NCBI GenBank assembly: GCA_965223295.1
Contig: CBDCWC010000003.1
Coordinates: 192,001 to 256,000 of the forward strand
Length of the DNA: 64,000 bases
DNA from: Nitrospirales bacterium
GTDB taxonomy: Bacteria; Nitrospirota; Nitrospiria; Nitrospirales; UBA8639
Reading direction: 5' to 3'
Shown here: piece after piece, positions 1 through 52,778 of the stretch
How positions within the stretch are numbered: position 1 is the first letter of the stretch
How the letters are laid out: each line of letters starts with the position of its first letter
Program-made: the position numbers and the translations under genes
Notes under the pieces: model-generated
The model's database searches: none
What the model was told of the DNA's origin: nothing
The model's input: the letters and a program-made list of their open reading frames with translations, nothing else

Positions 1-213
1 ATTTCCCATTCAATTCCTAGTGTTTCATGGCCCATGTCAGCAAAGCCTTTTGAGAAAATCTCGCAACCTGGCTGCAACATTTACTATTCTGTATTATAAT
101 TGACCGGCAAGAACAAACAAGGTCCCACTTGGTTACTTGTCAGAAGACCGCTTGCTCCATGGCTCCTTACCCTTCTCCCTAGAGATCATCCTCTCGTCTT
201 GGAGGCGTTGTCC

Positions 214-834
214 ATGCCACTCCTGCCTGATACTCCACATGTTACATCAGCCCCAGACACAGATTCACTAAATTCCGACAGAGAGGATCAGGAATCGAAA
301 TATCGTGCACTCCTTCACCAGATGGCCTTGGGAAAAGAAGCCGCACTCACCGAGTTTTATCACACCTTCGAAGCAAAAATTTATGCATTTGTGAAAATTC
401 GTTTAAACGATTCACATGATGCAGCCGACTTACTCAATGACATCATGTGGGAAATTTGGCGGGGAGCCGGTAAATTTGAAGGTCGTTCTTCTGTCACCAC
501 TTGGGTGTTTGGAATTGCCCGTCACAAAGTGATTGATCGTATTCGCAATCGCGGAAAACACCCTGTGGAACCCTTGGAAGTGACCACTGAAAAAGAATCA
601 GACTATGATTTGGAGGGCATCATTGTACAAAAGGAAATGGGAGAACATCTTCAGCATTGTCTCCAGAAGCTCTCGCCGGACCATCATCAGACAGTCCATC
701 TGGCATTTTTTGAAGATTTGTCATATCGAGAAATTGGAGAAATTGTGGGCAGCCCGGAAGGTACCATCAAAGCGCGCATGTTTCATGCCAAGCAGGCACT
801 CAAACGCTGTTTAGCTAGACGCATTCGTGAGTAA
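214..834 (+). CDS. ECF RNA polymerase sigma-70 factor (paralog 1)
   Basis: Region 2 (DLLNDIMWEIWRGAGKFEGRSSVTTWVFGIARHKVIDRIR) and region 4 (LSYREIGEIVGSPEGTIKARMFHAK). Start placed at ATG 214 after GGAGG (201-205) instead of TTG 100. Confidence 0.93.
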   Translation: MPLLPDTPHVTSAPDTDSLNSDREDQESKYRALLHQMALGKEAALTEFYHTFEAKIYAFVKIRLNDSHDAADLLNDIMWEIWRGAGKFEGRSSVTTWVFGIARHKVIDRIRNRGKHPVEPLEVTTEKESDYDLEGIIVQKEMGEHLQHCLQKLSPDHHQTVHLAFFEDLSYREIGEIVGSPEGTIKARMFHAKQALKRCLARRIRE

Positions 835-846
835 CGAGAGGACTGT

Positions 847-1461
847 ATGAGTAAAACTTCAACAGACAAACAAGAGCACCCGGATAAATTGCTACCATGG
901 TTTGTCAACGAAACACTCTCAAGTAACGAACGAGATGATGTCGCGCAACATGTTCAAGCTTGCTCCCGATGTCAACAGGAAATTGCTCTGCTCCAACGAA
1001 TAAGGACACATATCAAAGAAACGCACACTCAATCTCCGGGAGAATTTGGCCTTAAGCGGCTCCTGTCCGAAATTCGAAAGGAACAGGCTGTCACCAAAGT
1101 AGAACGACTAAGACCTTCTGGATGGTGGCAAAAAGGATTTGCCATTGCGGCTTCGTTGATCATTTTTATCCAAGCTGGATTTCTCTTGGATGCCTGGTAT
1201 TTGTCCAAACCGATGGTTCCGCTAGCTGGTCCACAAACACATGAACAAGTCCTGCAGATCTCTTTTCAACCAACTGCGACAGAAGCACAAATACGAGAAG
1301 CGATGAGTCATATTCATGGAACATTTATCGATGGGCCAAGTTCTTTAGGCCTTTATCGAGTTCGTCTCAATACGGCAGCCTCTCCTGAAACACCCATCCG
1401 ACAAACCATTGAACAACTTCGCCAACAGACGACAATCATCCAACATGTTGCAGAAGACTAA
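847..1461 (+). CDS. Zinc-binding anti-sigma factor (zf-HC2/ZAS), single TM, periplasmic C-terminal domain
   Basis: HVQACSRC (HxxxCxxC) motif, hydrophobic helix FAIAASLIIFIQAGFLL, immediately downstream of the ECF sigma. Confidence 0.88.
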   Translation: MSKTSTDKQEHPDKLLPWFVNETLSSNERDDVAQHVQACSRCQQEIALLQRIRTHIKETHTQSPGEFGLKRLLSEIRKEQAVTKVERLRPSGWWQKGFAIAASLIIFIQAGFLLDAWYLSKPMVPLAGPQTHEQVLQISFQPTATEAQIREAMSHIHGTFIDGPSSLGLYRVRLNTAASPETPIRQTIEQLRQQTTIIQHVAED

Positions 1462-1477
1462 AGATGGAGGCAATGAT

Positions 1478-2854
1478 ATGCTGAGCCAATTTTTTCAACT
1501 TGCCGTAACATTGTCACTCATTCTTAGCTCAATCTCTGTAATCTCCTGTACCACCTCCACACCTCAGAGTCAATCGATTCAATCTCCCTCCGAACAACAG
1601 AAGCAGCTTGTCGGATCACGAATCAACAATCAAGACACCGCCCGTGCATTTGATCGTCTCCGAACCAGAGGCCTTCGAGATCACGAGGATATTGATCTGA
1701 ATAGGCTCGAGCCTGGGGAAGTGTGTGTGATAAATGTGAATGAAGCCGACGCCAGAAAATTAGATGAATTCGCACAAGCCAGAGGTTACACCAAGAAAAA
1801 ACGCCGGATACTCAACAACCTCGGGTTCGTGATGAGTATTTTCCACGCACCGCCCGGACAAAGTCTCCAGGAAGCAATCCTGGCGATCCAAGAAGCTTTT
1901 CCGTCACAAATCATCGACGCAAACCATCACTATTACCTACAGGAGCAGACCCTGCCGATCAATCCTCTTCTCTACGGACACCGACTAGTAGGGTGGACTG
2001 ATCACGCCATTGGTTGTGTCATCCATGAGATATCAATCGGAATGATTGACACCGCAGTGAATATGAGACGTCTCCCGGCAAAACAACGCACAATTCACAC
2101 CAAATCATTTATCCCTCCCAATGCATCAAAGCCTCAGGATTATCATGGAACAGCGGTGGCCACACTTCTCGTTGGGCAAGCTCACACAACAAACCATGCC
2201 TTACTTCCCCAAGCTTCGTTGTTCGTGGCAGAGGCATTTCGGCAAAAAGAAGCCGGCAAGGTCGAAGCAACTACTTGGAGTATCGTACGAGCGTTGGACT
2301 GGCTCGTAGAACAACATGTACAAGTCATTAATCTTAGTTTAGGGGGTCCACCGAATGCCTTGCTTTCCTATGCCATCACCACGACCCTAAACCAGAGCAT
2401 ACCAATTGTTGCTGCTGGAGGAAATGCAGGCCCTGACGGACATCCCATCTATCCAGCCGCACAACCTGGCGTCATTGCCGTAACAGCATTAGACGCAAAA
2501 CTTCATCCGTATCGTTACGCCAACAGAGGGTCTTACATTTCGTTTTCTGCTCCAGGCGTCGACATATGGATCCCTCAAGAAGGTGGGACCGGGGCCTTTC
2601 AATCTGGAACATCATTTGCGACTCCATTTGTCACAACGGCAACCGCTGCAGTCAAACAATTAAACCCGCATTGGACTCCAGATCAAATTGTATACCAACT
2701 AGCTCGTACGGCTGTGGACTTGGGAACCACAGGCAAGGATGAAACCTTTGGTTGGGGACTCATCCAAATTCCACACACTTGTCCAAATACCTCGTCATCT
2801 CTTCACACTCAATCCTCTAGCATGAATCCTGATTCAAAAAGAGTGAAGCATTGA
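1478..2854 (+). CDS. S8 subtilisin-like serine protease, probable lipoprotein
   Basis: Triad motifs IGMIDTAV, YHGTAVA, SGTSFATP; oxyanion AAGGN; signal/lipobox ISVISC; GGAGG before ATG 1478. Confidence 0.9.
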   Translation: MLSQFFQLAVTLSLILSSISVISCTTSTPQSQSIQSPSEQQKQLVGSRINNQDTARAFDRLRTRGLRDHEDIDLNRLEPGEVCVINVNEADARKLDEFAQARGYTKKKRRILNNLGFVMSIFHAPPGQSLQEAILAIQEAFPSQIIDANHHYYLQEQTLPINPLLYGHRLVGWTDHAIGCVIHEISIGMIDTAVNMRRLPAKQRTIHTKSFIPPNASKPQDYHGTAVATLLVGQAHTTNHALLPQASLFVAEAFRQKEAGKVEATTWSIVRALDWLVEQHVQVINLSLGGPPNALLSYAITTTLNQSIPIVAAGGNAGPDGHPIYPAAQPGVIAVTALDAKLHPYRYANRGSYISFSAPGVDIWIPQEGGTGAFQSGTSFATPFVTTATAAVKQLNPHWTPDQIVYQLARTAVDLGTTGKDETFGWGLIQIPHTCPNTSSSLHTQSSSMNPDSKRVKH

Positions 2855-3015
2855 TAGCAAAAAATCACTAACTTTTCGAACGATACTGCCCTTAGTTCCC
2901 CTTCCCCAGAGACTCCAAAAGCGTGAAGTGACCTAGCGAAAATAGATTGATTCCAACAGAAGTGCTCACTTTTAGAATAGATCCGTGCCCATCCTTCAAT
3001 TTTGCTCAAAATAAT

Positions 3016-3047
3016 TACAACCATTTTCCTTCACACTACCACTTACC
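3016..3047 (+). promoter_or_regulatory. Putative ECF-sigma promoter (-35/-10), copy A
   Basis: TACAACC-N16-CCACTTACC; same bipartite motif and spacing recur at 3836, 8172 (minus) and 19168. Confidence 0.6.
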
Positions 3048-3144
3048 CTACAACACCCTTTGACAGAGTAGTCATTGAACAGGTTTCGACAGCACCCCAA
3101 TATTTTGGTCTGCATTCATTATCAAAGGGGCGAGTGAGGAGGCC

Positions 3145-3741
3145 ATGATGCCAAAATTTATTATATATCTATATCTCTTGCTATCTTTCGGACTCACTAG
3201 TTCAATCTCACCGATCCATGCCGAGGTTCGTCTCATTCACAACACCCTCACAGTTGATAGCCACAATAAGACCTTGAAGGATGTTCTGGATGACCTACGA
3301 CAACAAGGAAATTTCAACATTGTCGCCTTTGAAGAAACAATAATCGGCAATGTGAGAATATCCAAACAATTCTGGAACCTCCCACTTGAAAAAGGTTTAG
3401 ATCGACTTCTCAGTGGCTGGAATTACGGAATCAACCGTGATGGATCAACAGGCAAAATTACCGTACTGTATCTTGTTTCTCAGCGGAAAGGCCCAGCACC
3501 TTTCTCTCGTGTTCTATCGGCCTCCATAGCACAACCATCAAGTTACAATGCCTATGAGGCACAAACTTGGCCAACGGGTTTGAGCGAAACCCATAACGCG
3601 CAATCCACCGATTCTGACGATGAAGAAGAGGACAAAGAGTTTACAAGCGAATTAGATTCCCTCAGCGAGCATGAGCTCAAAAATCTCCCACCTGACCTCC
3701 GTAAACAAGCTATAAATTTGTACCGAAATGACCACTCTTAG
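3145..3741 (+). CDS. Hypothetical secreted protein, possible STN/secretin-N0-like domain with acidic tail
   Basis: Signal peptide ending IHA; LTVDSHNKTLKDVLDDL...LPLEKGLDRLL resembles N0/STN domains; GAGGAGG RBS. Confidence 0.6.
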   Translation: MMPKFIIYLYLLLSFGLTSSISPIHAEVRLIHNTLTVDSHNKTLKDVLDDLRQQGNFNIVAFEETIIGNVRISKQFWNLPLEKGLDRLLSGWNYGINRDGSTGKITVLYLVSQRKGPAPFSRVLSASIAQPSSYNAYEAQTWPTGLSETHNAQSTDSDDEEEDKEFTSELDSLSEHELKNLPPDLRKQAINLYRNDHS

Positions 3742-3835
3742 AATGGCCTCTATTCTTTTATCGTGTCTATTAGAGAACTCTTTACTCAAAATGAATAGGA
3801 TCAAATCATATCATGCAAGCTTTTTATGATAATGA

Positions 3836-3867
3836 TACAACCAAAATGCTCATGTTGACGACTTACC
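3836..3867 (+). promoter_or_regulatory. Putative ECF-sigma promoter, copy B
   Basis: TACAACC-N16-CGACTTACC, 46 nt before ATG 3914. Confidence 0.7.
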
Positions 3868-3913
3868 TCATGACACGTTCAAAAATAATCGACTTATTTA
3901 AAGGAATAACACA

Positions 3914-4612
3914 ATGAACATCACCTCGATCTTACACCAAATAATAAATGGGAATTATCTATGTAGAAGACAAACAATGAAGAATGAAGAACCATGGACT
4001 TCGACACAGGAGCGTTGGGAAAAGGAGGAACGATGCCAAGAGCTTGACGTGCACTTTAATTGTGTAGCCTCAAGCAAGCAGCCAGTGCTGCTATGGAAGT
4101 ACGAAGACACAGATACCTCGGAAGTTGCCAAGTTGTTGCACAAAAGGAGTCCCTTTTGCAAGCATCACCTTGTGACCGTATCTTGTCGAACCGACCCTTT
4201 CAAGACTTGGGGAATGGCTCTGTCTCAGCTTATCGTGCCACATCAACCCAGAACGGACGAACAACCTGCAGACCCAATTACCATGGTTCCTGGTGGAACG
4301 TTGTTTATCAATGATCTAGAGTTCTTGCCTTTTGAACTACAACGCCTGCTCTATGCGTTATTGGATCAAGATGGAGTCATTCGATTTATGGGTAAGAATG
4401 CCCACGGCGTTGAAATCAGAGTCATAGCCTCCACGACTACAGATATTTGGAAAAAATGCCAAGAAGGATTCTTTCACGCCAGTCTCTTGTATCAACTCAA
4501 TCGTTTAAACGTCCATGACCTCTCCTGTCCTATGCATTCACTACTCTCGTTCAAAAAAAGTGATCGCCTGTCTCCAGACGATATGCCCCCTCTCAAGCGC
4601 ATAATTCATTGA
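3914..4612 (+). CDS. Stand-alone degenerate sigma54-interaction (bEBP AAA+) domain protein 1
   Basis: Aligns to bEBP core (PVLLW...VTVSC...GGTLFIND...LPFELQRLL...IRVIAST...LLYQLN) but Walker A, GAFTGA and Walker B are altered; no HTH or sensor domain. Confidence 0.75.
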   Translation: MNITSILHQIINGNYLCRRQTMKNEEPWTSTQERWEKEERCQELDVHFNCVASSKQPVLLWKYEDTDTSEVAKLLHKRSPFCKHHLVTVSCRTDPFKTWGMALSQLIVPHQPRTDEQPADPITMVPGGTLFINDLEFLPFELQRLLYALLDQDGVIRFMGKNAHGVEIRVIASTTTDIWKKCQEGFFHASLLYQLNRLNVHDLSCPMHSLLSFKKSDRLSPDDMPPLKRIIH

Positions 4613-5295
4613 AAGATTCAAAAGCAGACCACTTCTCGGAAAGAGAAGCAACGTTCGCTTAGAAAAACAGTATTCCCCAAATAGGTGATCGATCTAGGGA
4701 CTTCCACGACCCCTATCGATCATTCATTTTTTCTCAAGCATGCATCGCTATCAAAGAAATCACGGCCGCATCGATGCTATACTTTTTTTATAGAACTCTC
4801 GAAGTTACACATCTACAAGGGCCTAGCGAGCCATCTCTAGCGACTCAAGATGAAAGACATTAAACACCATATTGCGAGAGCACCGGCTCACACGATTCAC
4901 TCTTGGGTATCAGAGCAACCTCTCAGAATCAGACGGCAACAGACATTTAACAAATACTTGAATCATCATCTTACCTTATACTAGCCTAATGTTCCGGAAG
5001 CCGTGATAATGCACACAAAAATAGAACCTGTTCAACATGATCATATTTTTTTGATTACGAATAGAGACCTGAACGAGAGATAAAATTCCTGAACCACAGG
5101 ATTATGATACGTATGATGAATCTACGGAAAAGCGAATTCCCGACCGTTTGGCATTTTGGGAAGCAAAAGTTGGTTTACGGACCGTGATGAAGCCGCGAAC
5201 CATAGAATGTCGCTTTTCATGAAGGAAGGTTGCTCTAAAAGATTTCTATCCGTTATAAAAAAAATATCAGTACAGATTCACTGAGATAACTTCAA

Positions 5296-5337
5296 GAGCT
5301 GTGGGCCTCCAAGTCACAACTTGGAGGCCCACAGCTC
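5296..5337 (-). terminator. Perfect 19-bp hairpin downstream of the cytochrome gene
   Basis: GAGCTGTGGGCCTCCAAGT-caca-ACTTGGAGGCCCACAGCTC, 26 nt after the stop at 5364; no clear U-tract. Confidence 0.6.
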
Positions 5338-5363
5338 ATGCAGCAATTTCTCACTGGCTCTTG

Positions 5364-7970
5364 TTACGGCGTACCCATAAAGAACTGATCAGTTTCTGAT
5401 TCAAAGGGTTCTGTCTCATCATCGATAGAATTCAAGAGGATGATCAGATCTTTCCTTTGCTGCTCACTGAGTGCGCCCTGAATAGTAGAATTTCCTAACT
5501 GGTGCACCGCAAACACTTCCTCAAAGTTTTGCGCACTCCCATCATGTAGGTACGGGGCACCAAAACGGATACCGAGTAACGAGGGCACATTAAAGGCGCC
5601 TTGTGCAGTTAAGGATGCGAATCCTTGTGTGGACTGCCCTGCAATGGCGCCTGCCCCGCGAATTTCAATCGGGCTGTTTGGGTCAAACGTGCCGACGTTC
5701 TCGACGAATCGGAGCGTGCGGTTGCCATCCGCAACAGCAACAATCTGGGGTCCAGCTACCATCAGAGCTGGATCTATTGGTGGAACACCATCAAAGAAAT
5801 TTATCCCTAATGGGTCCACATTGAAGGTGGGGTTATTCTGATACAAAGGACTGGTTCGGCTCTTTGTCCACTTACTCCCACCATGGCAGGACGCACAATT
5901 CGTGGCAAAGACGGTTCGCCCTGTATCAACATCCGCTGGATTCGGCATATTGGGAGACCGGATTGTGGCGATCCACTCGTGCATGGCGTCCAGCGCATCA
6001 CTAACGCCCACCACAGGCCCATGATTAAAGATTTCTGCCGCTTTGTTCTCGCCATTGACATCTGTGGCATGACCAATTCCACCCTGAACGCCCCGTGAGT
6101 TTTGATCAAAGTCCGTAGACGGCGACCCTCGCACCCCGTTCCAGTTCATGATCCGTTGATCAGTCAAATCATTTTTGGTAAATGAACCGGCCAGCTCGAT
6201 GGTTTGTCGCGGACCTGTCGGAAACAGCCAGGTGACCCCATCCATGTGACCATCCTCATGACAGGAAGAACAACTGCTCCAACCATCCTTTGAGGCCTTG
6301 CCCCGAAACTGCAGAGGCTCGATGTTGCGAAGGTCAATATCAAACAGCCCGTCGCCACTGATATCGTGCACATCGGGGATACCCAATGCAGTAAAGAAGA
6401 GCAACTTACCAACTAGGGTCCGATGTTCCGGACTTCCTGCGGGAGGCGGTGTGCTCGAGGGAATATCTCGATTCAACACCTGATTCGATCCTAGATCAAT
6501 TGAAGTCACGGATGTGTTGATCTCGTTGTTGGTATATGCCCGGGTCGCTCCTGAATCAATGACCACGCCACTGGGCATATTTCCAGTCTGCAAACGAATG
6601 ACGTTATCCGGAGCACCAATATCCAGCTTCCCAGAATTATCAAGCTCCGCAGGCAACAGCACGTTACCGCCGCGACTGAGGATAAAGAATTTCTTGCCCT
6701 GGCCATCCGCGTCCATCGCTACGACATCGTTCAGAAAAAGACGGTCCAAGTTTCCTGGCTCCTGAAGCGGTGGCGTTTCGCTGGCTACCTGCGTATTGAG
6801 ATTGAGCGTGAAGTCGTGCTCGCCGCCGTTTTTCTTGTTTTTCTTTCTATCAACTACGGAGACTAAGGCTTGGACATTGTTGTTAAAGATGACCGGAGGT
6901 TCCGGCTGTGCACCAACATTCAGCACATAGAGGTTGTCGCCACGAAGCAGGGCCGCATAGAGGAGGTTCGGATAGACCCCCTGCGGGTCGGAACCAATTG
7001 GCCCATCCGGAGAAGCATCATGGCTATTGGGATCAGGACAGAACACTTCATTGGCCAACAGAGCTGCACCGTCTCCTTGCCTATCTTTTCCACTACTGAA
7101 GAATACGACATCGCCATTATCCTGGAGAATTTGACGAGTCTTGAGACAGAATTGCCGACGGTCCGCCTTAAACCCTGAGTCACCGGGAGGCAAGGTCACT
7201 TGCTTAATCCGGCCCGAAAGGATGGATTGCAAAATCGGCGAGTCTTTTCCAAGCCTGTCCGCCAATCTTGCAGTCGTTAATCCATGAATGACCTTAAAGG
7301 AATCCACGACACCCTGCTTGGCATCGTCAAATCCATCGGGTCTGGCTGGATCGATGAGCTCGCTAAAAAACCGTGTGACATACACGCGTTCATCAATATC
7401 GACTCTGTTGCCATTGTCTGTAATGGCAATGGCCATGGGGTTACCACCTGTCGGCACAGCCCCGATAACCTTCAAGGATTTCATGTCGATAAGAGAGACA
7501 TCACCCGAAGTGTGATTTGCCACAAATGCAAACTGGCCATTTGGCGTCAGAGCAATCCCTCGTGGTTCCTCACCGACCTGAAGCGGGTTTCCATTAAGAG
7601 CCGGAGGGTGAGACATCAAATCAATAACCGAGACAGTGCCATCTCTTCCGTTCGTCACCAAAGCCTTTTTGTCGTCGGGACTAATAGCGACAAATCGGGG
7701 ATCTCGCCCTACTGCAATCTCAGCGATCAAATTCTCCACATCATTCCCATGTTCGTCCCGTACTTCAAGGATCGAGACACTGTCTGCTTGACGATTGACG
7801 ACAACTAAGCGCCGGTCATCAGAAGTCAGTGCGATAGTCGTCGACCGAGTTGGCATTGGCGGAGGCTTTTCAAATTTCCTCTCCATAGAATTCCCTGGAA
7901 TGGGTGTAATGAACTCTAGAGTGAGCCCAAGAACTAAAAGGGTCGAGAATACTCGCGTAAGCTTTCGCAT
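5364..7970 (-). CDS. Secreted YVTN/YncE beta-propeller fused to di-heme cytochrome c (bCcP/MauG superfamily-like)
   Basis: Signal peptide; propeller repeats (VGRDPRFVAISPD, VGEEPRGIALTPNG); heme motifs CSSCH and CASCH; C-terminal FNVPSLLG..APYLHDGS; AAGGAGG before ATG 7970. Confidence 0.85.
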   Translation of the reverse strand: MRKLTRVFSTLLVLGLTLEFITPIPGNSMERKFEKPPPMPTRSTTIALTSDDRRLVVVNRQADSVSILEVRDEHGNDVENLIAEIAVGRDPRFVAISPDDKKALVTNGRDGTVSVIDLMSHPPALNGNPLQVGEEPRGIALTPNGQFAFVANHTSGDVSLIDMKSLKVIGAVPTGGNPMAIAITDNGNRVDIDERVYVTRFFSELIDPARPDGFDDAKQGVVDSFKVIHGLTTARLADRLGKDSPILQSILSGRIKQVTLPPGDSGFKADRRQFCLKTRQILQDNGDVVFFSSGKDRQGDGAALLANEVFCPDPNSHDASPDGPIGSDPQGVYPNLLYAALLRGDNLYVLNVGAQPEPPVIFNNNVQALVSVVDRKKNKKNGGEHDFTLNLNTQVASETPPLQEPGNLDRLFLNDVVAMDADGQGKKFFILSRGGNVLLPAELDNSGKLDIGAPDNVIRLQTGNMPSGVVIDSGATRAYTNNEINTSVTSIDLGSNQVLNRDIPSSTPPPAGSPEHRTLVGKLLFFTALGIPDVHDISGDGLFDIDLRNIEPLQFRGKASKDGWSSCSSCHEDGHMDGVTWLFPTGPRQTIELAGSFTKNDLTDQRIMNWNGVRGSPSTDFDQNSRGVQGGIGHATDVNGENKAAEIFNHGPVVGVSDALDAMHEWIATIRSPNMPNPADVDTGRTVFATNCASCHGGSKWTKSRTSPLYQNNPTFNVDPLGINFFDGVPPIDPALMVAGPQIVAVADGNRTLRFVENVGTFDPNSPIEIRGAGAIAGQSTQGFASLTAQGAFNVPSLLGIRFGAPYLHDGSAQNFEEVFAVHQLGNSTIQGALSEQQRKDLIILLNSIDDETEPFESETDQFFMGTP

Positions 7971-8332: not shown

Positions 8333-8620
8333 TCAATCAAGCACATTCTTCGAAAAACCTAGGGAATGCGCGATGTTCGTCACGGCGGTGGGGCAGTTCA
8401 GCAAATAGACATTACTGCGCATATGCTCAAAGAGTTTTTCAACCCCCTTTTGCGTGACAATAACAAGATGACAAAATTCTATAATGAACTGCTTGTTCGT
8501 ATGCATAAAAAGAGACTCCAGCCAATTCGACCAATCATCAAGATCGCTCTCAACAATCTCTCCTTCTACCTTGAAAAGAACGGTTTGTTCATTTTCAAAA
8601 ATTTTTTTAATTCGAAACAT
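8333..8620 (-). CDS. STAS-like (anti-anti-sigma-like) small protein
   Basis: LFKVEGEI...FIIEFCHLVIVTQKGVEKL...VYLLNCPTAV follows the STAS pattern; GAGGAGG RBS before ATG 8620. Confidence 0.65.
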   Translation of the reverse strand: MFRIKKIFENEQTVLFKVEGEIVESDLDDWSNWLESLFMHTNKQFIIEFCHLVIVTQKGVEKLFEHMRSNVYLLNCPTAVTNIAHSLGFSKNVLD

Positions 8621-8666
8621 GGTCCCTCCTCGACAAACCACACCTTCATTTCAACGCATCACACGT

Positions 8667-8682
8667 TTCAATACACATGCCA
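8667..8682 (-). promoter_or_regulatory. Sigma54-like -24/-12 promoter (variant -12)
   Basis: TGGCATG-TGTA-TTGAA; GG-N10-GA rather than GC; 46 nt upstream of the STAS start. Confidence 0.5.
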
Positions 8683-9193: not shown

Positions 9194-11020
9194 CTATTTT
9201 TTAACGTCGATTCCCAGCTTTCGCATCCGCGACCACAGGGTTGAGCGGTTCATGCCGAGTAAAGCCGCTGCTCCTTTTGGACCCGCAAGGACTCCGCCGG
9301 TTTTATCAAGTGCATCAAGAATGAGGCTACGCTCGGCGACTTCTAAGGTAGGAGCCTTTGGAGGATTGACCTCCGGTCCGGTTAAAAAACCAATGTGCTC
9401 TTCCGTTAGCACTCGGCCTTGGCAGAGGATGACAGCTCGTTCGAGAATATTTGCCAGCTCACGGACATTCCCCGGCCAATCAAAACGTCGGAGCCTATCA
9501 AATGCCGAATCGCTGATACTCTTAATTGGCTTCCCCATTCTCCTGGAAAAATTTCGCACAAAATAGTTGGCCAACTGTGGGATATCATCCTTTCGTTCTT
9601 TCAGCGAAGGAATGAAAATAGGAAAAATATTTAATCGATAAAACAGATCTGAGCGAAACGAACCGCGCCGTACTTCTTCTTGCAAATCTTTATTGGTTGC
9701 AGCAATCACACGTACATCAACTTTAATGGTGTGCGAGCCACCGACACGCTCGAATTCCTGTTCCTGTAGCACCCGCAAGAGTTTAATCTGCGTGTCATGT
9801 GGCAGCTCACCGACTTCATCCAAAAATATCGTGCCATGATGGGCCAATTCAAACCGGCCTTTCTTCTGTGTACCCGCACCGGTAAATGCCCCCTTCTCAT
9901 GTCCGAACAACTCGCTTTCAACCAAGCCCGCTGGCAATGCTCCGCAGTTTACTTTGATCATGATACGGTCTTTTCGATGACTCGCACTGTGGATCGCCCG
10001 CGCGATCAGTTCTTTTCCGGTTCCAGTTTCCCCGAGCAACAGCACGGTCGAATCCGTCGCCGCGACCATTTCGATATGTTTAAACACTCGCTCCATGGAG
10101 GGCGAGGTCCCGATAATCTCGCCGAAATTGAGTTCGTCTCTAAGCTCCTCTTTCAAATAGACATTTTGGTGATGGAGCCGGTCGAGTTGTTCTTCAGCCT
10201 TCTTTCGCTCCTCTATATCACGTAAAATAATCGTCACCAGGCATTGGCCAGAAATAGTAACCATAGAAAGGGTGCCCTCGATAGGAAACTCTTCTCCATC
10301 ACCTCGAACGGCGGTCTGTCCTTCCGGAACCCAGAGTGGAGTTTTTTTCTTCTGCCGCTTCATGTCATGAACATAGTTTTGAAGCAACCCTCGCAATTCT
10401 TCAGACAGAAACGACTCGAGTGACCGGCCTTCAACCGCTTCACGGTCACACCGAAACATCTTTTCGGCGGACTCATTGTAAAGAACAATTCTTAAGTCTT
10501 CATCCACCGTAATGATCGCATCCATGGCCGTAGTAATGATGCCATTCAGTCGTTCACGACTCTCATAAAGCGCCCGTTCCACTTTTTTTCGTTCAGTCAC
10601 ATCCACCAAAAACGACTGAGTGTGGATAAGCACATGATTCTCATCAAACTTGCCATGTGCAGACAACAACACATCGATGATCTCACCGTTCTTTTTAATG
10701 AACTGCAACTCGAGATTCGTGGCTAAGCCAGTTTTGAGAAACCTTTCTCTAAAGTGATAATCGATCGCATATGCTCCAGATGGCTTCGTCTGAAAGTCAG
10801 TGACCGGCCGGCCAAGAACCTCTTCCCGTCTATAGCCAAGGACATTCAGCCAATGCTGATTCACGCTCACCAGTTTCGCCTCTTTGTTCAAAGAATGCAT
10901 CATGACGGGGGTATGTTCATAGAGGAAACGATGCCGCTCTTCACTTTCTTTCAGCTCAGCCGTGCGTTCTTCAACTCGCCTTTCAAGTTCAGCCGCATCT
11001 CGTTTGCTAAATGAGGACAT
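9194..11020 (-). CDS. PAS-PAS sigma54-dependent transcriptional activator (FhlA/NtrC-family bEBP)
   Basis: Two PAS/PAC domains; Walker [38 protein letters not shown]; Fis-type HTH. Confidence 0.95.
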
Positions 11021-11474
11021 AAATCGTTTCGCTTATCTTCTATTACCGTATGCGCATGACCCCTGCGCCGAGCGGCACCCATGGGAGATACGGCCCAGTT
11101 CAGATTGAATGGTATGGTTTGACCTGAAAGGCGTGAAGATCCGAGGCAGAAGAATCTGTTGCCGTTTGTGGGCGCTACCGAAGAATAGATGTCTGGTGCT
11201 GTGACGTTGCATCACCTCACTCATGAGAATGTGGGCTGGCTAGGTGCTCTGGGGGGAGATACGTGATGCTCAGTGGAGATATGCCATCAGCCAGCCCTCC
11301 TGAGAATAGGAAGGCAATAAGTAAATCTTGTAGAAAACCAAACGGTACCAAGGAGGCCAGAAAAAGGTCAATCGACGTAAAAATCTTTCCAATTTTTCAA
11401 CAAAGCTCAAATCATCCTAAAAACGGCGGTTGGATCACTCTCTCCTTCGATCAAGCGACAGGTAAATCTGCTTA

Positions 11475-11490
11475 TGGCATTCATATTGCT
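11475..11490 (+). promoter_or_regulatory. Sigma54 -24/-12 promoter upstream of ECF paralog 2
   Basis: TGGCATT-CATA-TTGCT (GG-N10-GC), 69 nt before ATG 11560, divergent from the bEBP gene. Confidence 0.8.
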
Positions 11491-11559
11491 ATTTATCTCA
11501 TGAAATTGGCTAAAAGAGTGGAGAAAGATTCTTTATCAAGACGGAAGAAGGCCTCACCC

Positions 11560-12186
11560 ATGCTAGCCCCTCATCATCCCACATCAGCCCTAAACAAAGA
11601 CTCCTTGCGCAAACAAATGGAACACACACGAAGCAAGGACAATGATCATCACCAAGCGCTCATAACGAAAATGGCGAGAGGGAGTGAAGAGGCCTTATCG
11701 GAATTTTACCGGATCTTTGAGAAAAAGATTTATGCGTTCGTGCAAATCCGTTTAAACGATTCTCATGATGCCACCGACTTACTGAATGAAATCATGTGGG
11801 AGGTTTGGAAGGGCGCTGCGCGGTTTGAAGGTCGTTCAGCGGTCACAAGCTGGGTCTTTGGAATCGCTCATCACAAAATCGTTGATCGCATACGAAGCAA
11901 AACTCGGCATCCCACGGAACAACTTGAAACCATCGAATCTTATGAATCAGATCTCGATCTTGAAACCCTTGTAGGAAAGAGGCAGTTAGGGAGCCATATT
12001 CAACATTGCATGGAGAAGTTATCTCATGAACAGCGGCAGGTTGTACATTTCGCGTTCTTTGAAGACTTCTCGTATCGGGAGATCAGTGAGATCGTTGGGA
12101 GTCCAGAAGGCACGATTAAGGCACGAATGTTTCATGCCAAGCAAGCACTCAAACGCTGCCTAGCAAGACGGCTCAAAGCAGATTGA
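11560..12186 (+). CDS. ECF RNA polymerase sigma-70 factor (paralog 2, no adjacent anti-sigma)
   Basis: Close paralog of 214..834, with identical EIVGSPEGTIKARMFHAKQALKRCLARR. Start at ATG 11560 (or 11617), downstream of the sigma54 promoter. Confidence 0.93.
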   Translation: MLAPHHPTSALNKDSLRKQMEHTRSKDNDHHQALITKMARGSEEALSEFYRIFEKKIYAFVQIRLNDSHDATDLLNEIMWEVWKGAARFEGRSAVTSWVFGIAHHKIVDRIRSKTRHPTEQLETIESYESDLDLETLVGKRQLGSHIQHCMEKLSHEQRQVVHFAFFEDFSYREISEIVGSPEGTIKARMFHAKQALKRCLARRLKAD

Positions 12187-13352: not shown

Positions 13353-14102
13353 ATGAGTTCTAGATCTTTACAGAAATCGACAACCAGCTACCAACACCAA
13401 ATTGTCCTAGCAATGGCAGCATGGGCAATCTGGTTCATGATGACAGGGTCTGTACTCAGTTACGGGGCAGACAACGACATACAGGTCTTCCAACACGGTG
13501 ATGACAATCAAGCCACCTTGACGAACACCGGGCAATCGAATCGAGCGGTGGTGACACTAGGGGGTAACCATAGCGAAGTACGCATTGAACAGGTCGGTGA
13601 GAACCATCAGGCTGAACTGACGCAAGATGGAGAAGACAATCTCCTCACCGTTTATCAAGAGGGAGAGGACCATACAGCAAATATGACGCAAGGGTTGAAC
13701 ACAGTGGGCAACACCATCAGCTTGGAGCAAATCGGCATGGCCCATACGGCTACGGCCATCCAAGAAGGGGCTTTGAACTTGATCGCGCAACAGCAACAGG
13801 GATTTGATAACCAACTGGAAGCCTACCAAGATGGCGACAACAACCAGATCAAGCAAGAACAAGAGGGGTCTGGTAACCGAGCGACGGCCCGCCAAGTTGG
13901 AGACGGAAACAGCATTGCCCAAACACAAATGGGAAATGACAATCAGTCAGACGCTCTACAATTCGGTCAGGATAACAGCATCACCCATACACAAGTCGGC
14001 GATGGGTTAGCCTATTCGGTGGTGCAAGAGGGACATGGGATGGAGATCACGATCACGCAAGACATGTTGGGCACCGTGGTCACACCTCCCCCCGGGCAGT
14101 GA
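13353..14102 (+). CDS. Curlin-repeat protein (minor curlin/CsgB-like)
   Basis: Signal peptide followed by repeated Q-x-G-x-x-N-x-A-x-x-x-Q units. Confidence 0.85.
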   Translation: MSSRSLQKSTTSYQHQIVLAMAAWAIWFMMTGSVLSYGADNDIQVFQHGDDNQATLTNTGQSNRAVVTLGGNHSEVRIEQVGENHQAELTQDGEDNLLTVYQEGEDHTANMTQGLNTVGNTISLEQIGMAHTATAIQEGALNLIAQQQQGFDNQLEAYQDGDNNQIKQEQEGSGNRATARQVGDGNSIAQTQMGNDNQSDALQFGQDNSITHTQVGDGLAYSVVQEGHGMEITITQDMLGTVVTPPPGQ

Positions 14103-14108
14103 CACTTC

Positions 14109-14196
14109 GTCATTCCCGCGTGGGCGGGAATCTAAATTCGCCAGTCACGAAGCTGGTGAAGAAAGGTGGATACCCGCCACATTCTGCGGGTATGAC
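14109..14196. repeat. REP-type inverted pair
   Basis: GTCATTCCCGCGTGGGCGGGAATCTA ... TGGATACCCGCCACATTCTGCGGGTATGAC; a degenerate second repeat family follows (~14218-14275). Confidence 0.7.
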
Positions 14197-14464
14197 AAGA
14201 TTTGGGATTAGGACACATGGTTCGAACAGGTTCACATGACACGTATCGAAACCTCATTCTGAGTTCGTCGAAAAATGGTTTAACAGGGACATCTTAGATG
14301 GGTGACATATAAAACATTCTGCTAGCGTTTAAGGGAAGAAACGCTAGAACCATTCTACGCAGCAGGGCAACGCGCGAGTCCGCAAGCGAAGGATGAAAAA
14401 GAAGGCTTCCCAAATAAAAAGTATTGTTCACCAACACATTTCATGTTTAACAAGGAGAATGATC

Positions 14465-15103
14465 ATGAACCATCGATCACTTATACACACATCAGTAAGC
14501 AGTTTATTCATGCTTGCATTGCTCACTGCCGGGACTGGGGTCTCGGCACAAGATAACGTTGCGGACTTCTTGCAGGAGGGCGACGACAATGTCGCGACCA
14601 TTGTCCAAGTCCCGGACGCTGAGGGAGTGGAAGCCTTTATTAGTCAAGCCGGCGATGACAACACGGCGGAAATCGTCCAAAACCAGAACTCCTCACACAA
14701 TCTGGCTATCATCGACCAAAGCGGCGATGGAAACAACACGGATATTAACCAATTTGGAGGCTCATCCAACAACGTGGCTATGATCGACCAAAGCGGCGAT
14801 GACAATAATGCGCTAATCCAGCAAAATCTAAACTCCGTCGACAATGTGGCCACCGTCGACCAAAGCGGCAATGACAACTCCGCATTTCTCGAACAAATCA
14901 ATGGTACTGAAAACAATACAGCCTCCATTGATCAAAGCGGCGATGACAATTCGGCCGCCATTTTCCAACTTGGCACGAACAACGTCGCCAGCGTGGATCA
15001 ATCGGGAGATGACAATGAGGCCAATGTGAACATGATTGACAATTTCGACATGGTGTCTGTGGTGCAATCTGGCAATGGTAACGTAGCCAATTACAACCCA
15101 TGA
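14465..15103 (+). CDS. Curlin (CsgA-like), about 8 repeats
   Basis: Signal peptide ending VSA; repeats N-x-A-x-I-D-Q-S-G-D-x-N-x-A-x-I-x-Q; AAGGAGA before ATG 14465. Confidence 0.88.
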   Translation: MNHRSLIHTSVSSLFMLALLTAGTGVSAQDNVADFLQEGDDNVATIVQVPDAEGVEAFISQAGDDNTAEIVQNQNSSHNLAIIDQSGDGNNTDINQFGGSSNNVAMIDQSGDDNNALIQQNLNSVDNVATVDQSGNDNSAFLEQINGTENNTASIDQSGDDNSAAIFQLGTNNVASVDQSGDDNEANVNMIDNFDMVSVVQSGNGNVANYNP

Positions 15104-15240
15104 ATTGAAGAGTTCATGGATGGATAAGGGCCTGGGGAGGGAGATAACCCTCCCTCCACAGCCAAAGAAGAATAGTACATGGACCACAATTAACCACTCA
15201 TTTTCAGCCTAGCTGGTAATGTTGACGAAAGAGGATTGAA

Positions 15241-16467
15241 ATGAAACATCGATCATTCAGACATACATCAATCACCAGTCTATTCGTGCTTGCATTGCTC
15301 ACTGCCGGAACCGAGGTCTCGGCACAAGATAACGTGGCGGACTTCCTACAGGAAGGAGATAACAATGTAGCCACCATACTTCAAGTCCCGGATGCTGAAG
15401 GAGTCGAGGCTATTATTAGTCAAGCCGGAAATGACAACGAGGCGGAAATTGAGCAAGCGGGGGAGGATATTGCCCACCTTGTTGTTTCTATCAACCAAAG
15501 CGGCGATGGAAACGACGCGGATATCCTCCAAGAAAATGACTCCTCGAACAACGTAGCCTCTATCAACCAAAGTGGCAATGGGAACGATGGGGAGATCAAC
15601 CAAGAGTTGAACTCTTCCAACAACGAGGCCACCATCGACCAAAGTGGCGATGGGAACAATGCGGATGTCCTCCATGAGATAGACTCGTTTGACAACGTTG
15701 GCTCCGTCGATCAAAGCGGAAATGACAACCTTGCAGATATTACCCAAGATTTTGACTCCGCGAACAACGTAGCCTCTATCGACCAAAGTGGCGATGGGAA
15801 CACGGCCGATATTAACCAGAACGAGGATTCTGAAAACAATACAGCCTCCATTGATCAAAGTGGCGATGACAATGTAGCGGAAATCAACCAAAGTCTGGAA
15901 GCCGGAAACAATGAAGCAAACATCACTCAAGATGGGGACGGCAACTTTGCGAAAGTTGAACAAGATGAAGCAGCCGAAGGCAATGTAGGTTCTATCGACC
16001 AGAGTGGCGACAACAACGAGGCGGGCATTACTCAAGACGATGTCTCGGAAAACAATGTTGCCAACATCAATCAGAGTGGGAATAACAACTTTGCGGAGCT
16101 TGAGCAGCAAATCACTTCTTCCCACAACACAGCCTCCATCGTCCAAAGCGGAGATGGCAATGAGGCAACTCTCGAACAGCTACTCACTTCTTCCCACAAC
16201 ACAGCCTCTATCGTCCAAAGCGGTAACACGAATGCAGCTAACATAAATCAAAGTCTTAACTCTGAAAACAATGAAGCCACGATTGACCAAAGTGGCAATG
16301 ACAACTTGGCAAGTATTAATCAGAGTGTTGACAGTATGAACAATGTAGCCAGTGTGGACCAATCCGGCGACAATAACGAAGCCTTAATTAATATGACCGG
16401 TCAAGAATTTGATGTGGTGAATGTTGTACAGTCAGGGAATGGCAATGAGGCCTTTTATAACCCATGA
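15241..16467 (+). CDS. Long curlin (CsgA-like), 16 repeats of about 24 aa
   Basis: Signal peptide nearly identical to the preceding gene; 16 QxG-x-x-N repeats with a 72-nt period; strongly acidic. Confidence 0.9.
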   Translation: MKHRSFRHTSITSLFVLALLTAGTEVSAQDNVADFLQEGDNNVATILQVPDAEGVEAIISQAGNDNEAEIEQAGEDIAHLVVSINQSGDGNDADILQENDSSNNVASINQSGNGNDGEINQELNSSNNEATIDQSGDGNNADVLHEIDSFDNVGSVDQSGNDNLADITQDFDSANNVASIDQSGDGNTADINQNEDSENNTASIDQSGDDNVAEINQSLEAGNNEANITQDGDGNFAKVEQDEAAEGNVGSIDQSGDNNEAGITQDDVSENNVANINQSGNNNFAELEQQITSSHNTASIVQSGDGNEATLEQLLTSSHNTASIVQSGNTNAANINQSLNSENNEATIDQSGNDNLASINQSVDSMNNVASVDQSGDNNEALINMTGQEFDVVNVVQSGNGNEAFYNP

Positions 16468-16892
16468 ATCAAAGATCTCACAGAGGCTTTAGTGGCATGA
16501 TTACTTGGAGAGCGAGTGCCCACCTTCCTGGGTGGGTGCTCTGCCTAGGGGTTGGCCTCTGGTTATGTTTGGGACCAGTTGAGGCAGGGCAATCTTCTCT
16601 CCACACGGCAGATGAGGAAGCACAGATGGATACGAATCAGCAAATCATCATCCAAGAAGGCCAGAATAATCACAAAGCCATCACCCAGGATGGTGAGCAT
16701 CTGAAGCTGCGCCTGGAGCAGCGCGGAACCGATAACAAGTCAACCATTACTCAACAAGGTAATGACAATCAGGCGGAGTCGATTCAAGAGGGTGATCGCA
16801 ACAGTAGTCGCATTCGTCAAAAAGGTTCTGGCAACCGAGCCGCCATTCGACAGGATGGTTCTTCGCGAACCAAGAAGCGAGAGACCTCATGA
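16464..16892 (+). CDS. Short basic curlin-repeat protein (CsgB-like nucleator candidate)
   Basis: Signal peptide; QEGQNN, QRGTDN, QQGNDN, QKGSGN repeats; ATGA overlap with the preceding gene. Confidence 0.8.
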   Translation: MNQRSHRGFSGMITWRASAHLPGWVLCLGVGLWLCLGPVEAGQSSLHTADEEAQMDTNQQIIIQEGQNNHKAITQDGEHLKLRLEQRGTDNKSTITQQGNDNQAESIQEGDRNSSRIRQKGSGNRAAIRQDGSSRTKKRETS

Positions 16893-17332
16893 GAAACACG
16901 CTGCCCCGTTACATACTCTTGCAAGTCGGGCTACAAATGTGGTGTCTCGTTTTTATCATGGGCTTGCTCTCGCCCATGGCGACTCTGGCTGTGACGCCGC
17001 CCCGAGAAGATGAAACAGACGATACTTTCTTGGGGATTGCGGGCTTGGTCGTGGATGAAACACGCACGGTAGCGGGGCGACGATTTTTCGAAGGCCTCGC
17101 TTCTCAATTGACGGATCTTGGGGGACAGACAGAGAACATTGTGGTGACCGAGCTGGCAGATCCCCGCTTTGGCAGCCGCCTCTCAGTCAACGTGGGACCC
17201 GCACTCGTCTTTCGGCGATTTTTGGCCCCGCGGCTGGGAGATGTCGACAAGGAAGTGGAATTGGCGGTATCCAGAGTCCATCGAGTATTGAACATGGCAC
17301 ACCAGCTTCAGCAAGCATTGGAGATGTACTAA
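16889..17332 (+). CDS. csgE: Curli assembly protein CsgE
   Basis: GLVVDETRTVAGRRFFEG...IVVTELADPRFGS matches CsgE; position before csgF/csgG. Confidence 0.85.
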   Translation: MRNTLPRYILLQVGLQMWCLVFIMGLLSPMATLAVTPPREDETDDTFLGIAGLVVDETRTVAGRRFFEGLASQLTDLGGQTENIVVTELADPRFGSRLSVNVGPALVFRRFLAPRLGDVDKEVELAVSRVHRVLNMAHQLQQALEMY

Positions 17333-17399
17333 TGGGCCATGAGTGGCGACACCTTCGTCGTCAAAGCACACATTGGATAGGCCACAAGGGAGGGTTGAG

Positions 17400-17825
17400 A
17401 TGAAATGTTTTTTTATACTTCTTTCGCTAATATTTTCCTTTTTCACGTGGGATGGCAACGTGCATCAATCAGCAGCCTCGGAACTCCGGCATACCTTTAC
17501 GAATCCGAATTTTGGGGGCAACCCGTTTAATGGTCAACCTCTCTTAAATTCCGCTGTCTTACAGAATGATTTTGACGGAGAGGAGGACGACAGTCGGCCC
17601 GGAGTCCTTGAAGATTTTCAGACTCGCTTAGATCGGGCTATTTTCAATCGCCTGTCCCGCGAAATTGTGGCGGAAGCCTTCGGCGAGGACAGTGACCTCA
17701 CCCCAGGCACCTTTGATACAGGGGATTTTCAGATTGACATCTCCGAAGATGTCGACGGGGTGACGGTTGGCATCGTGGACAAGCTGACGGGGGATACCAC
17801 CACCATCCAAGTTCCGTTTTTTTAA
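17400..17825 (+). CDS. csgF: Curli assembly protein CsgF
   Basis: Mature N-terminus SELRHTFTNPNFGGNPFNGQPLLNSAVLQN and C-terminal TGDTTTIQVP. Confidence 0.93.
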   Translation: MKCFFILLSLIFSFFTWDGNVHQSAASELRHTFTNPNFGGNPFNGQPLLNSAVLQNDFDGEEDDSRPGVLEDFQTRLDRAIFNRLSREIVAEAFGEDSDLTPGTFDTGDFQIDISEDVDGVTVGIVDKLTGDTTTIQVPFF

Positions 17826-17867
17826 TGCCATGGCATTATTGTGATTTTGATAAGGAGATGTGTTGTC

Positions 17868-18919: not shown

Positions 18920-19131
18920 GAGTCTGTTGAAAAAAACCGTCAGCGGCGTTCTCGCCATTTTTCCGTGCTCACGTAGGACCAGTCCGCTCTGTACGCAAAA
19001 ATGGCTGTGGCCTTTCTAGACGGACTCTTCGACAGACTCAGTGAATGCTTTTTGAACCAACCCGAGGCCGCTCATCGTCTACGGGTCCCTGACGAAATAT
19101 GCCCCTTGATATCTTCATTATTCAACACTCC
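18920..19131 (+). repeat. MITE/REP-like element copy
   Basis: CTGTTGAAAAAA..CAGCGGCGTTCTCGCCATTTTTCCGTGCTCACGTA ... ATTATTCAACACTC. Confidence 0.85.
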
Positions 19132-19167: not shown

Positions 19168-19199
19168 TTCAACGATTACCCGTGTTCTTACGACTTACC
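19168..19199 (+). promoter_or_regulatory. Putative ECF-sigma promoter, copy D
   Basis: TTCAACG-N16-CGACTTACC just upstream of degenerate bEBP 2. Confidence 0.65.
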
Positions 19200-19233: not shown

Positions 19234-19908
19234 GTGAGTCAAAAGATGAAGGGCTATGAAACCTGCAACCCTTACGATTGTAAGGCAACAATGTTCGAAT
19301 TGAGATTAGACATGGGGAAAAAGAGCGAAAACCATAGAAGGATTGCCTTACCATCACAACCCTGGAAGGCGGCTTGGGCCATCGACAAGAGTGAGGATCA
19401 ATTGGCCCATATTGCCGTGGTGGATCCACCTGTATTTTTATGGAAGAACCGAAACGCAGACACCATCACGAGAAATTTCGCTCGTGCTATTCACGAAAAA
19501 AGCCGATTTGCTAAGCAGCCATTTATGACGATCTCCTGTCAATCAAATCCACAGTCTTCCTGGAAACAAGCGATGGCGCAGTTGAAGTTCCGTAGTTCTT
19601 TTGACACGATGAGCATCTCACTGAAAAGTGAACTGGAAACCTGTATCCCCGGGGGCACCCTCTATCTAGATGAGGTCGCAGCCTTACCTTGGGAGCTACA
19701 GCGTGGGTTATTAGCGTTGATTGATCATGACGGGTTGATTCGGTTTGTACGCGCCGATAGACAAGAGGTGGAAGTTCGTATCATCTCAGCCTCAACGATG
19801 GAACTCTGGAACACAATTGCAAAGGGGACGTTGCGTGCAGACCTCTTTTTCCGGCTCAACGTGCTAGCGATGCGAGTCCCCTCCCAAACAGTGAACGTTC
19901 AGGCATAA
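19234..19908 (+). CDS. Stand-alone degenerate sigma54-interaction (bEBP AAA+) domain protein 2
   Basis: PVFLWKNRNADT replaces Walker A; GAFTGA absent; retains GGTLYLDEV and LRADLFFRLN; start uncertain. Confidence 0.78.
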   Translation: MSQKMKGYETCNPYDCKATMFELRLDMGKKSENHRRIALPSQPWKAAWAIDKSEDQLAHIAVVDPPVFLWKNRNADTITRNFARAIHEKSRFAKQPFMTISCQSNPQSSWKQAMAQLKFRSSFDTMSISLKSELETCIPGGTLYLDEVAALPWELQRGLLALIDHDGLIRFVRADRQEVEVRIISASTMELWNTIAKGTLRADLFFRLNVLAMRVPSQTVNVQA

Positions 19909-24426: not shown

Positions 24427-24433
24427 TAACTGT

Positions 24434-52762: not shown

Positions 52763-52778
52763 AGCAACCCATGTGCCA
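52763..52778 (-). promoter_or_regulatory. Sigma54 -24/-12 promoter for the STAS pair
   Basis: TGGCACA-TGGG-TTGCT, near-consensus. Confidence 0.8.

Follow-up and report, generated by a model that had tools for sequence, protein, structure and literature searches.

Bacterial enhancer-binding proteins (bEBPs; Pfam PF00158, with PspF, NtrC1 and FleQ among them) are modular, and variants without a sensor or without a DNA-binding domain are known. FleT reportedly forms a hetero-oligomer with its bEBP paralog FleQ, and partners of the FleT and HrpR type are full AAA+ domains with ATPase motifs and the GAFTGA loop. The clamp-loader subunit delta-prime is an AAA+ pseudo-ATPase without nucleotide binding that resides in the ring as an obligate subunit and keeps its lid and collar. 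Within the HrpR/HrpS to HrpL circuit of Pseudomonas syringae, the gene hrpV is under HrpL control. Excerpts of PMC4145663 describe that HrpR and HrpS form a hetero-hexamer, that these sigma-54 bEBPs drive the gene of an extracytoplasmic function (ECF) sigma factor and that the small protein HrpV binds HrpS and represses, and an excerpt of PMC6158489 states that VpsR "lacks conserved residues needed to" act as a classical bEBP. Our full-text search for bEBP modules that are degenerate or have become pseudo-ATPases turned up no account of a selected, stand-alone alpha/beta half devoid of ATPase motifs. Here we describe a protein that appears to be of this kind, encoded by an open reading frame (ORF) of 232 aa at positions 3914–4612 (+) of a 64,000-nucleotide stretch (the window) of a Nitrospirales genome (assembly GCA_965223295.1, contig CBDCWC010000003.1, positions 192,001 to 256,000). 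We consider it very likely that the ORF encodes a non-catalytic, maintained and regulated module, and the sequence data give good support to reading it as a selected, transcribed-looking, non-catalytic bEBP derivative that consists of the alpha/beta Rossmann half of AAA+ alone.

The ORF and its relatives, which we call pseudo-bEBPs, share with bEBPs a homologous and colinear alpha/beta subdomain and its core residues. They differ in lacking Walker A, the GAFTGA loop, the sensor I Asn, the lid, sensor II and the helix-turn-helix (HTH), and one of their two subfamilies (A) also lacks the arginine finger and, for the most part, the DE of Walker B. Atypical, sigma-54-independent homologs of the VpsR/TyrR type are likewise bEBP-derived AAA+ proteins without sigma-54-contact residues, but in them lid and HTH remain, together with a sensor or receiver at the N terminus, and they function as DNA-bound activators; the pseudo-bEBPs, being the AAA+ alpha/beta part alone, have neither an HTH nor a sensor or receiver around the degenerate domain. 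The ring-docking role considered below resembles FleT with FleQ and HrpR with HrpS, bEBP paralogs that act only via a mixed ring, but unlike such partners the pseudo-bEBPs have neither complete ATPase motifs nor GAFTGA. Delta-prime is comparable in its arginine-finger segment, which the second subfamily (B) also keeps, and differs in belonging to another AAA+ clade. The likeness to HrpV may lie in circuit logic: HrpV appears in the excerpts of PMC4145663 solely as a HrpS-binding negative regulator and is not presented there as bEBP-derived, whereas the inhibitor proposed here would be a stripped bEBP domain.

Results

A Bare AAA+ Core with Replaced Motifs

The frame is uninterrupted and is matched by PF00158 (Sigma54_activat; E 1.7e-14), residues 38 to 200 aligning with positions 5 to 167 of the 168-position profile. 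Its score is 54.3 bits, compared with 244.9 bits for an intact bEBP encoded on the opposite strand of the window (9194–11020). The intact protein carries both a lid and a Fis-type HTH; for the ORF, Pfam reports neither the AAA+ lid (AAA_lid_14, PF25601, with sensor II) nor the HTH (HTH_8, PF02954), and the C-terminal end lies about 30 residues past the alpha/beta subdomain. We read the motif states from a three-way alignment with the intact bEBP and a second short copy in the window (paralog 2). Walker A is changed from GETGTGKE to KYEDTDTS, Walker B from FLDEV to FINDL, the sensor I segment from AATN to ASTT and the arginine-finger segment from RSDLFYRLN to HASLLYQLN. The sigma-54-contact loop L1 (GAFTGA) is replaced as well and is variable in the family.

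The first-pass annotation, made from the letters alone, had described an open, stand-alone frame with a ribosome-binding site, replaced Walker motifs, loop and arginine-finger segment, and neither helical subdomain nor HTH, and our alignment and Pfam results bear it out on each of these points. As six of the seven bEBP-defining features fail and the alpha/beta homology to PF00158 is the only one retained, we do not class the protein as a bEBP. It is predicted, with good support from the alignment, to be incapable of P-loop ATP binding, of hydrolysis, of contacting sigma-54 through GAFTGA and of DNA binding. Every NCBIfam match of the ORF fell far under the model cut-off. The GC content of 0.449 lies within the genome's 5–95% range (0.419–0.520) and thus gives no compositional sign of recent transfer.

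A structure model built from a family-only alignment of 10 sequences was poor (predicted local distance difference test, pLDDT, 50.6). An 84-row alignment that included bEBPs gave a pLDDT of 83.1, with residues ~41–205 mostly above 90 and low values in the loop that stands for GAFTGA (111–125). Strands and helices follow one another in this model as in the AAA+ alpha/beta subdomain. By Foldseek, the closest PDB structures were PspF, VpsR (second), FleQ, DmpR, NtrC1 and FlrC, and the profile is colinear with the AAA+ domains of FleQ and NtrC over 168 residues without indels. The structure prediction that had been suggested as a check is therefore consistent with the bEBP AAA+ alpha/beta fold; because the deep alignment leans on bEBP rows, we take the model as evidence of fold compatibility and not as independent proof.

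A Small Family with Two Subfamilies

The family totals 13 sequences: three in the source genome (G000; 3.78 Mb in 3 contigs), two in a related genome (G057) and eight metagenomic proteins. The three short copies of G000 lie in open frames of 236, 239 and 248 aa, and the remaining 20 matches in this genome are ordinary bEBPs with frames of 465–864 aa; a separate script counted 3 short and 23 long copies. Paralog 2 is matched by PF00158 at E 4.1e-22 and is without Walker A and GAFTGA, and it keeps the Walker B DE and the segment RADLFFRLN. A protein search with the ORF returned five more relatives at 57–88% identity (P0002–P0006), and one with paralog 2 returned two at 64–65% (P0008 and P0009), all its other matches being intact bEBPs at E 1.2e-14 or worse. 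Searching a profile against 1.84 billion representatives gave two family clusters (P0009 and P0088, the latter a new divergent member), after which the E-value jumped from 2e-70 to 5e-41. Long matches past this gap were rejected as relatives: P0089–P0092 and P0094 are tandem intact AAA+ proteins whose scores add up, as seen by Pfam, with which five of the six matches with E up to 1e-30 were checked. The ESM Atlas holds clusters of 50–128 short (154–219 aa) Sigma54_activat-only proteins, mostly from Acidobacteriota and other phyla, and these may be contig-end fragments or analogous, independent stand-alone modules.

Counting matches with E below 1e-80 as true members, we found the family in two of 115 genomes of the taxonomic family, G000 (three copies) and G057 (two), the next best match reaching 1.4e-27. 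A 401-genome sample of the phylum gave the same two genomes and a search of the species-genome collection returned the G057 record alone, while the metagenome contig collection yielded 38 loci, all of them ordinary bEBPs at 22–38% identity, and no family member. By YchF identity, at least 19 genomes (86–90%) stand closer to G000 than G057 does (85%), and since the family is absent from all of these, its distribution is patchy. The syntenic gap in G057 holds no remnant of a subfamily A gene detectable by tblastn (best E 0.59).

We computed a tree from the 13 members and 23 intact bEBP domains, 22 from G000 and one from the neighboring bEBP of G057. The members form a single clade (support 100/100) that divides into subfamily A, with nine sequences including the ORF and the third copy of G000 (paralog 3), and subfamily B, with four including paralog 2, each again at 100/100. 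The divergence of A and B predates the split of G000 and G057, and both genomes retain at least one A and at least one B copy. Walker A and GAFTGA are found in none of the 13 members. The DE of Walker B remains in 6 of 13 (three of the nine A and three of the four B sequences) and the second Arg of RxDLxxRL in 4 of 13, namely all four B sequences, its place being taken by Gln in all nine of subfamily A. The earlier statement that all catalytic motifs are lost holds for the ORF and, with the three DE pairs noted, for subfamily A, but it is too strong for the less stripped subfamily B. A similar reservation applies to the features listed as shared with the paralog and derived (PVxLWK, SC..P..W, PGGTL and LP.ELQ..L.AL.D.DG.IRF): all are present, but GGTL and part of LP..LQ..LL are ancestral in bEBPs.

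The other two copies of G000 have features of their own. Paralog 3 (L013 10571–11278) is located in the Pup-proteasome operon, with prcA on one side and pafA on the other. On its 3' side, a stretch of ~300 bp is a diverged second copy of the 3'-terminal part of prcA (L013 11405–11705 vs. 9454–9758), and on its 5' side is a fragment that resembles the 3'-terminal part of the 341-aa gene in the ECF cluster of G057 (L013 9940–10092). This region (L013 9454–11705; G000:C3 ~586450–588700) has the appearance of a segmental insertion in which the gene moved along with its promoter. At the listed, tentative start of paralog 2 (window 19234–19320; L044 13349–13430), an N-terminal extension of ~27 aa with two Cys (TCNPYDCK/TCECIECK) is kept in G000 and G057 and is missing from P0008 and P0009.

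Selective Maintenance of the Family

All five DNA copies, from two genomes, are open and without stops, and on these five only we estimated dN/dS by the Nei–Gojobori method. The single orthologous pair with unsaturated dS, paralog 2 in G000 and G057, had proportions of nonsynonymous and synonymous differences (pN and pS) of 0.215 and 0.612 and a rough dN/dS of 0.20; pairs within subfamily A had pN of 0.33–0.35 against pS of 0.71–0.72. Neighboring genes in the same two genomes gave dN/dS of 0.083 (the intact bEBP), 0.084 (ECF sigma factor 1, ECF1) and 0.205 (its zf-HC2 anti-sigma factor). The constraint on the pseudo-bEBPs is weaker than that on the intact bEBP and similar to that on the anti-sigma factor, and the direction of the difference is clear.

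Across the 13 sequences, which are down to 29% identical, 25 alignment columns are invariant. Three Trp residues (W61, W99 and W179) are invariant and family-specific, the bEBP consensus being without them, and W61 occupies the place of the first glycine of Walker A. Core bEBP residues are kept as well: the H and S of A..IH..S, the C of NC, GGT, the Q of LQ and the R of the ERVG and VRVIA segments.

A decaying, functionless remnant of a duplicated bEBP would explain why all catalytic motifs are gone from the ORF and why the family is rare and patchy (2/115 and 2/401 genomes). It is hard to reconcile with five open copies out of five and pN far below pS, with 25 invariant columns in sequences this divergent, with a private promoter motif kept while its flanks diverged (see below) and with both subfamilies retained since before the G000–G057 split, and we consider it very improbable. 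The homolog search and dN/dS estimate that had been proposed as checks thus gave a small family with a ratio of ~0.2, and a ratio near 1 with frequent disruption was not seen. The first-pass view of a maintained family, as opposed to decay, is upheld by the open frames, the fully supported clade, the ratio and the invariant columns.

A Bipartite Motif Upstream of the Family Genes

Alignment of the regions upstream of the five DNA copies revealed one conserved element, CAAC[C/G]-N15–17-CGACTTA[C/T], amid diverged sequence; it ends ~36–63 nt before the start codons of the family genes. The window contains two matches where 0.07 are expected, and a strict version of the motif has three matches in the whole of G000, each upstream of one of the three paralogs. 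In G057 the motif matches 11 times and a reversed-pattern control 5 times. Nine of the 11 sites fall within the syntenic island or next to it; they precede both family genes as well as six genes whose products are small or contain repeats, mostly at a distance of 50–65 nt from the start. The six proteins are predicted to be secreted from hydrophobic leaders that we read from ORF lists, and one motif-bearing gene of this secreted type directly precedes ECF1 in G057. G055 and G080, in which the family is absent, carry a cluster of ECF1, anti-sigma factor, S8 protease, 341-aa and 198-aa genes with the motif before the 341-aa gene in both and, in G055 only, also before a PEP-like gene that heads the ECF1–anti-sigma–S8 operon.

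We scanned G000 with a position weight matrix (PWM) built from 11 motif instances taken by coordinates. Besides the training sites, it found one outside the training set, upstream of the 198-aa gene of the window (3018–3046), that tops all other G000 sites save two inside ECF sigma ORFs. The latter (window 405–433, score 25.3, and 11754–11782, score 21.2) fall on paralogous codons for LNDSHDA.DLL and are probably a by-product of paralogous coding sequence, the alternative being an internal promoter. A sigma-70 scan of 2800–5400 found no plus-strand site before the ORF, its four sites all being on the minus strand (4.5 expected), and no family gene was found to be preceded by a sigma-54-type motif. 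The candidate promoter of the first-pass annotation therefore does not stand as a sigma-70 type on the plus strand; what was found in its place is the different, bipartite motif.

ECF promoters typically combine an AAC-containing −35 with a CG-containing −10 at a fixed spacing and are present at the sigma factor's own operon. The bipartite motif is common to all five family genes, to the secreted-protein genes and to the ECF1 operon in G057 and G055. Because in the relatives it stands before the ECF1 operon and the secreted-protein genes, we read it as a promoter of the neighboring ECF sigma factor or factors, and either ECF1 or its paralog ECF sigma factor 2 (ECF2) may recognize it.

With one promoter type common to all, A and B copies would be co-expressed. 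Together with the retention of at least one copy of each in both genomes and with the presence of the cyclic di-GMP-binding FleQ and VpsR among the best sequence and structure matches, this would suit an oligomer of A and B (or of either with itself) that has taken up a new ligand-sensing role, for instance of a second messenger as in FleQ and VpsR. FleQ, however, uses R-N after Walker A for cyclic di-GMP and obtains further contacts from its lid, while the pseudo-bEBPs have K-L or E-L at this position in A and R-A, R-I or R-V in B, are without a lid and have no DNA-binding output. We regard such a role as improbable.

The spacer before paralog 2 also contains a copy of an interspersed repeat of ~108 bp (window 18922–19030, with others near 24429 and 38730) for which blastn gave at least 252 genomic matches with 79–91% identity. 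Further copies lie before paralog 3 (L013 10081–10191) and in the Mpa–Dop spacer (L013 6585–6696). The repeat looks like a miniature inverted-repeat transposable element or a repetitive extragenic palindrome.

Neighboring Genes and a Proposed Sigma-54 Connection

The features of the locus are collected in Table 1. The intact bEBP is divergent from ECF2, whose long listed ORF is probably an artifact; sequence conservation places the likely start at 11560. A sigma-54-type motif precedes this start and is kept in G057 within a poorly conserved spacer, and a second one, on the minus strand, is kept there within otherwise diverged sequence. Since such motifs are not enriched over the whole window (39 vs. 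34.4 expected), the case for sigma-54 rests on conservation and position. The only perfect match of the window to the sigma-54 consensus TGGCAC-N5-TTGCW is at 52763–52778 (−). The gene rpoN is present in both G000 and G057.

Table 1. Coordinates of the pseudo-bEBP genes, motifs and neighboring regulatory genes in the window
Feature	Position	Strand	Basis or remark
Subfamily A pseudo-bEBP, 232 aa, AAA+ alpha/beta subdomain alone	3914..4612	+	Pfam, alignment, structure model
Ribosome-binding-site-like AAGGA, 8 nt 5' of ATG	3901..3905	+	read from sequence
Motif CAACC-N16-CGACTTAC, 48 nt before ATG of ORF 3914–4612	3838..3866	+	pattern scan
Subfamily B pseudo-bEBP (paralog 2), 224 aa from listed GTG	19234..19908	+	Pfam, alignment
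Same motif upstream of paralog 2	19170..19198	+	pattern scan; same distance in G057
Weaker motif copy upstream of 198-aa gene	3018..3046	+	PWM score 23.3
ECF sigma factor 1, listed start probably too far upstream	100..834	+	Pfam Sigma70_r2/r4; NCBIfam ECF models
zf-HC2 anti-sigma factor	847..1461	+	Pfam, NCBIfam
198-aa protein, N-terminal hydrophobic leader (by eye), no Pfam/NCBIfam family, older ECF cluster member	3145..3741	+	
Sigma-54-type motif TGGCAT-N5-TTGAA upstream of 102-aa ORF 8333–8641	8667..8682	−	motif scan
Intact PAS-PAS-AAA+-lid-HTH bEBP, candidate partner or target	9194..11020	−	Pfam
Sigma-54-type promoter (putative) TGGCAT-N5-TTGC, ~70 nt before likely ECF2 start	11475..11490	+	one consensus mismatch
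ECF sigma factor 2, ECF1 paralog (64% identity), no adjacent anti-sigma	11263..12186	+	Pfam, NCBIfam

The sensor half of the bEBP has an ortholog in G057 only (81% identity, next best 35%). The same is true of ECF2 (74%), all other genomes having a single ECF1-type copy at 66% or less. An ECF1-type sigma gene is present in 12/115 genomes, as are homologs of the 198-aa gene (likewise 12/115). G000 and G057 are the only genomes that combine the bEBP ortholog, ECF2 and both pseudo-bEBP subfamilies. This distribution suggests an older ECF1 regulon that may later have been joined, in one co-inheritance, by a module of bEBP, ECF2 and pseudo-bEBPs.

A different use of the fold is suggested by the same genes, that of a non-catalytic adaptor in which the domain is a scaffold for a partner other than a bEBP, such as ECF2 or another product of the ECF regulon. 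The family genes share their motif-defined regulon with secreted proteins, ECF2 has no anti-sigma factor gene beside it and is found alongside the family in G000 and G057 alone, and the three invariant Trp residues, new in comparison with bEBPs, suggest a new surface or core. The regions conserved from bEBPs are core strands and helices, however, and are silent on a new partner. Binding of an ECF sigma factor by an AAA+ remnant is also not known to us from any other system, no search aimed at it having been made, and this counts against the alternative. We find it unlikely, although the strongest of the three alternatives considered here.

Two further observations concern the remainder of the window. 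A curli-type cluster (13353–18785) with three Curlin_rpt proteins, CsgF and CsgG lies between a homocysteine methyltransferase gene and paralog 2; in G057 the methyltransferase gene adjoins the paralog 2 counterpart with no curli cluster between them, which reflects either an insertion in G000 or a loss in G057. A 172-aa ORF at 61781–62299 resembles, by eye, the integrase-core part of an IS3-type transposase.

Discussion

The reading that we favor, tentatively and at somewhat less than even confidence, is that the ORF encodes a non-catalytic decoy subunit, induced by an ECF sigma factor, which attaches to bEBP rings and thereby exerts feedback on sigma-54 activation. The bEBP and sigma-54 would activate ECF2 via the conserved promoter, and the ECF sigma factor or factors would transcribe the pseudo-bEBPs from the bipartite motif. 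The lidless module would then dock by its retained alpha/beta surface on an intact bEBP protomer, most simply that of the neighboring gene, and would present neither a lid nor a working ATP site to the next protomer. Because of these two lacks, it could cap or poison ring assembly and so damp sigma-54 activation, and a negative feedback loop would be closed, like that of HrpV on HrpRS to HrpL. The two subfamilies could act at different ring faces, since B offers an arginine finger and A does not. In its full form, the proposal is one of natural "poison subunits": a sigma-54/bEBP-induced ECF sigma factor would induce lidless, ATP-blind bEBP cores, which would turn the cascade off by capping the activator ring. 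We hold this complete version to be a doubtful, if serious, possibility.

Several observations weigh against the decoy reading. The tree does not set the family beside the neighboring bEBP and places it on a long branch with no resolved parent. The co-occurrence of its components is effectively one observation, because G000 and G057 share one island, and in G000 itself no motif copy was found upstream of ECF1. The dS values are near saturation (1.27 or more), which makes the dN/dS values rough. Excerpts of PMC4145663 further report that the isolated AAA+ domain of HrpS is defective in dimerization and that C-terminal parts are indispensable for self-assembly, and for this reason a lidless module may bind rings weakly.

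What our analysis supports as new is a lineage-restricted pseudo-ATPase family of bEBP origin that appears to form part of an ECF/sigma-54 circuit. Its reach is limited by its rarity, as it is found in two genomes and eight metagenomic proteins. If ring capping is true, it would show a simple way in which sigma-54 activators can be turned off in nature, and the family would illustrate how a pseudoenzyme arises from an AAA+ motor. It would also represent a new class of anti-activators made from a stripped activator and a direct wiring between ECF and sigma-54 regulation. For these uncultured Nitrospirales, the proposed small circuit would lead from the bEBP and sigma-54 to an ECF sigma factor, and from there to secreted proteins and the pseudo-bEBPs.

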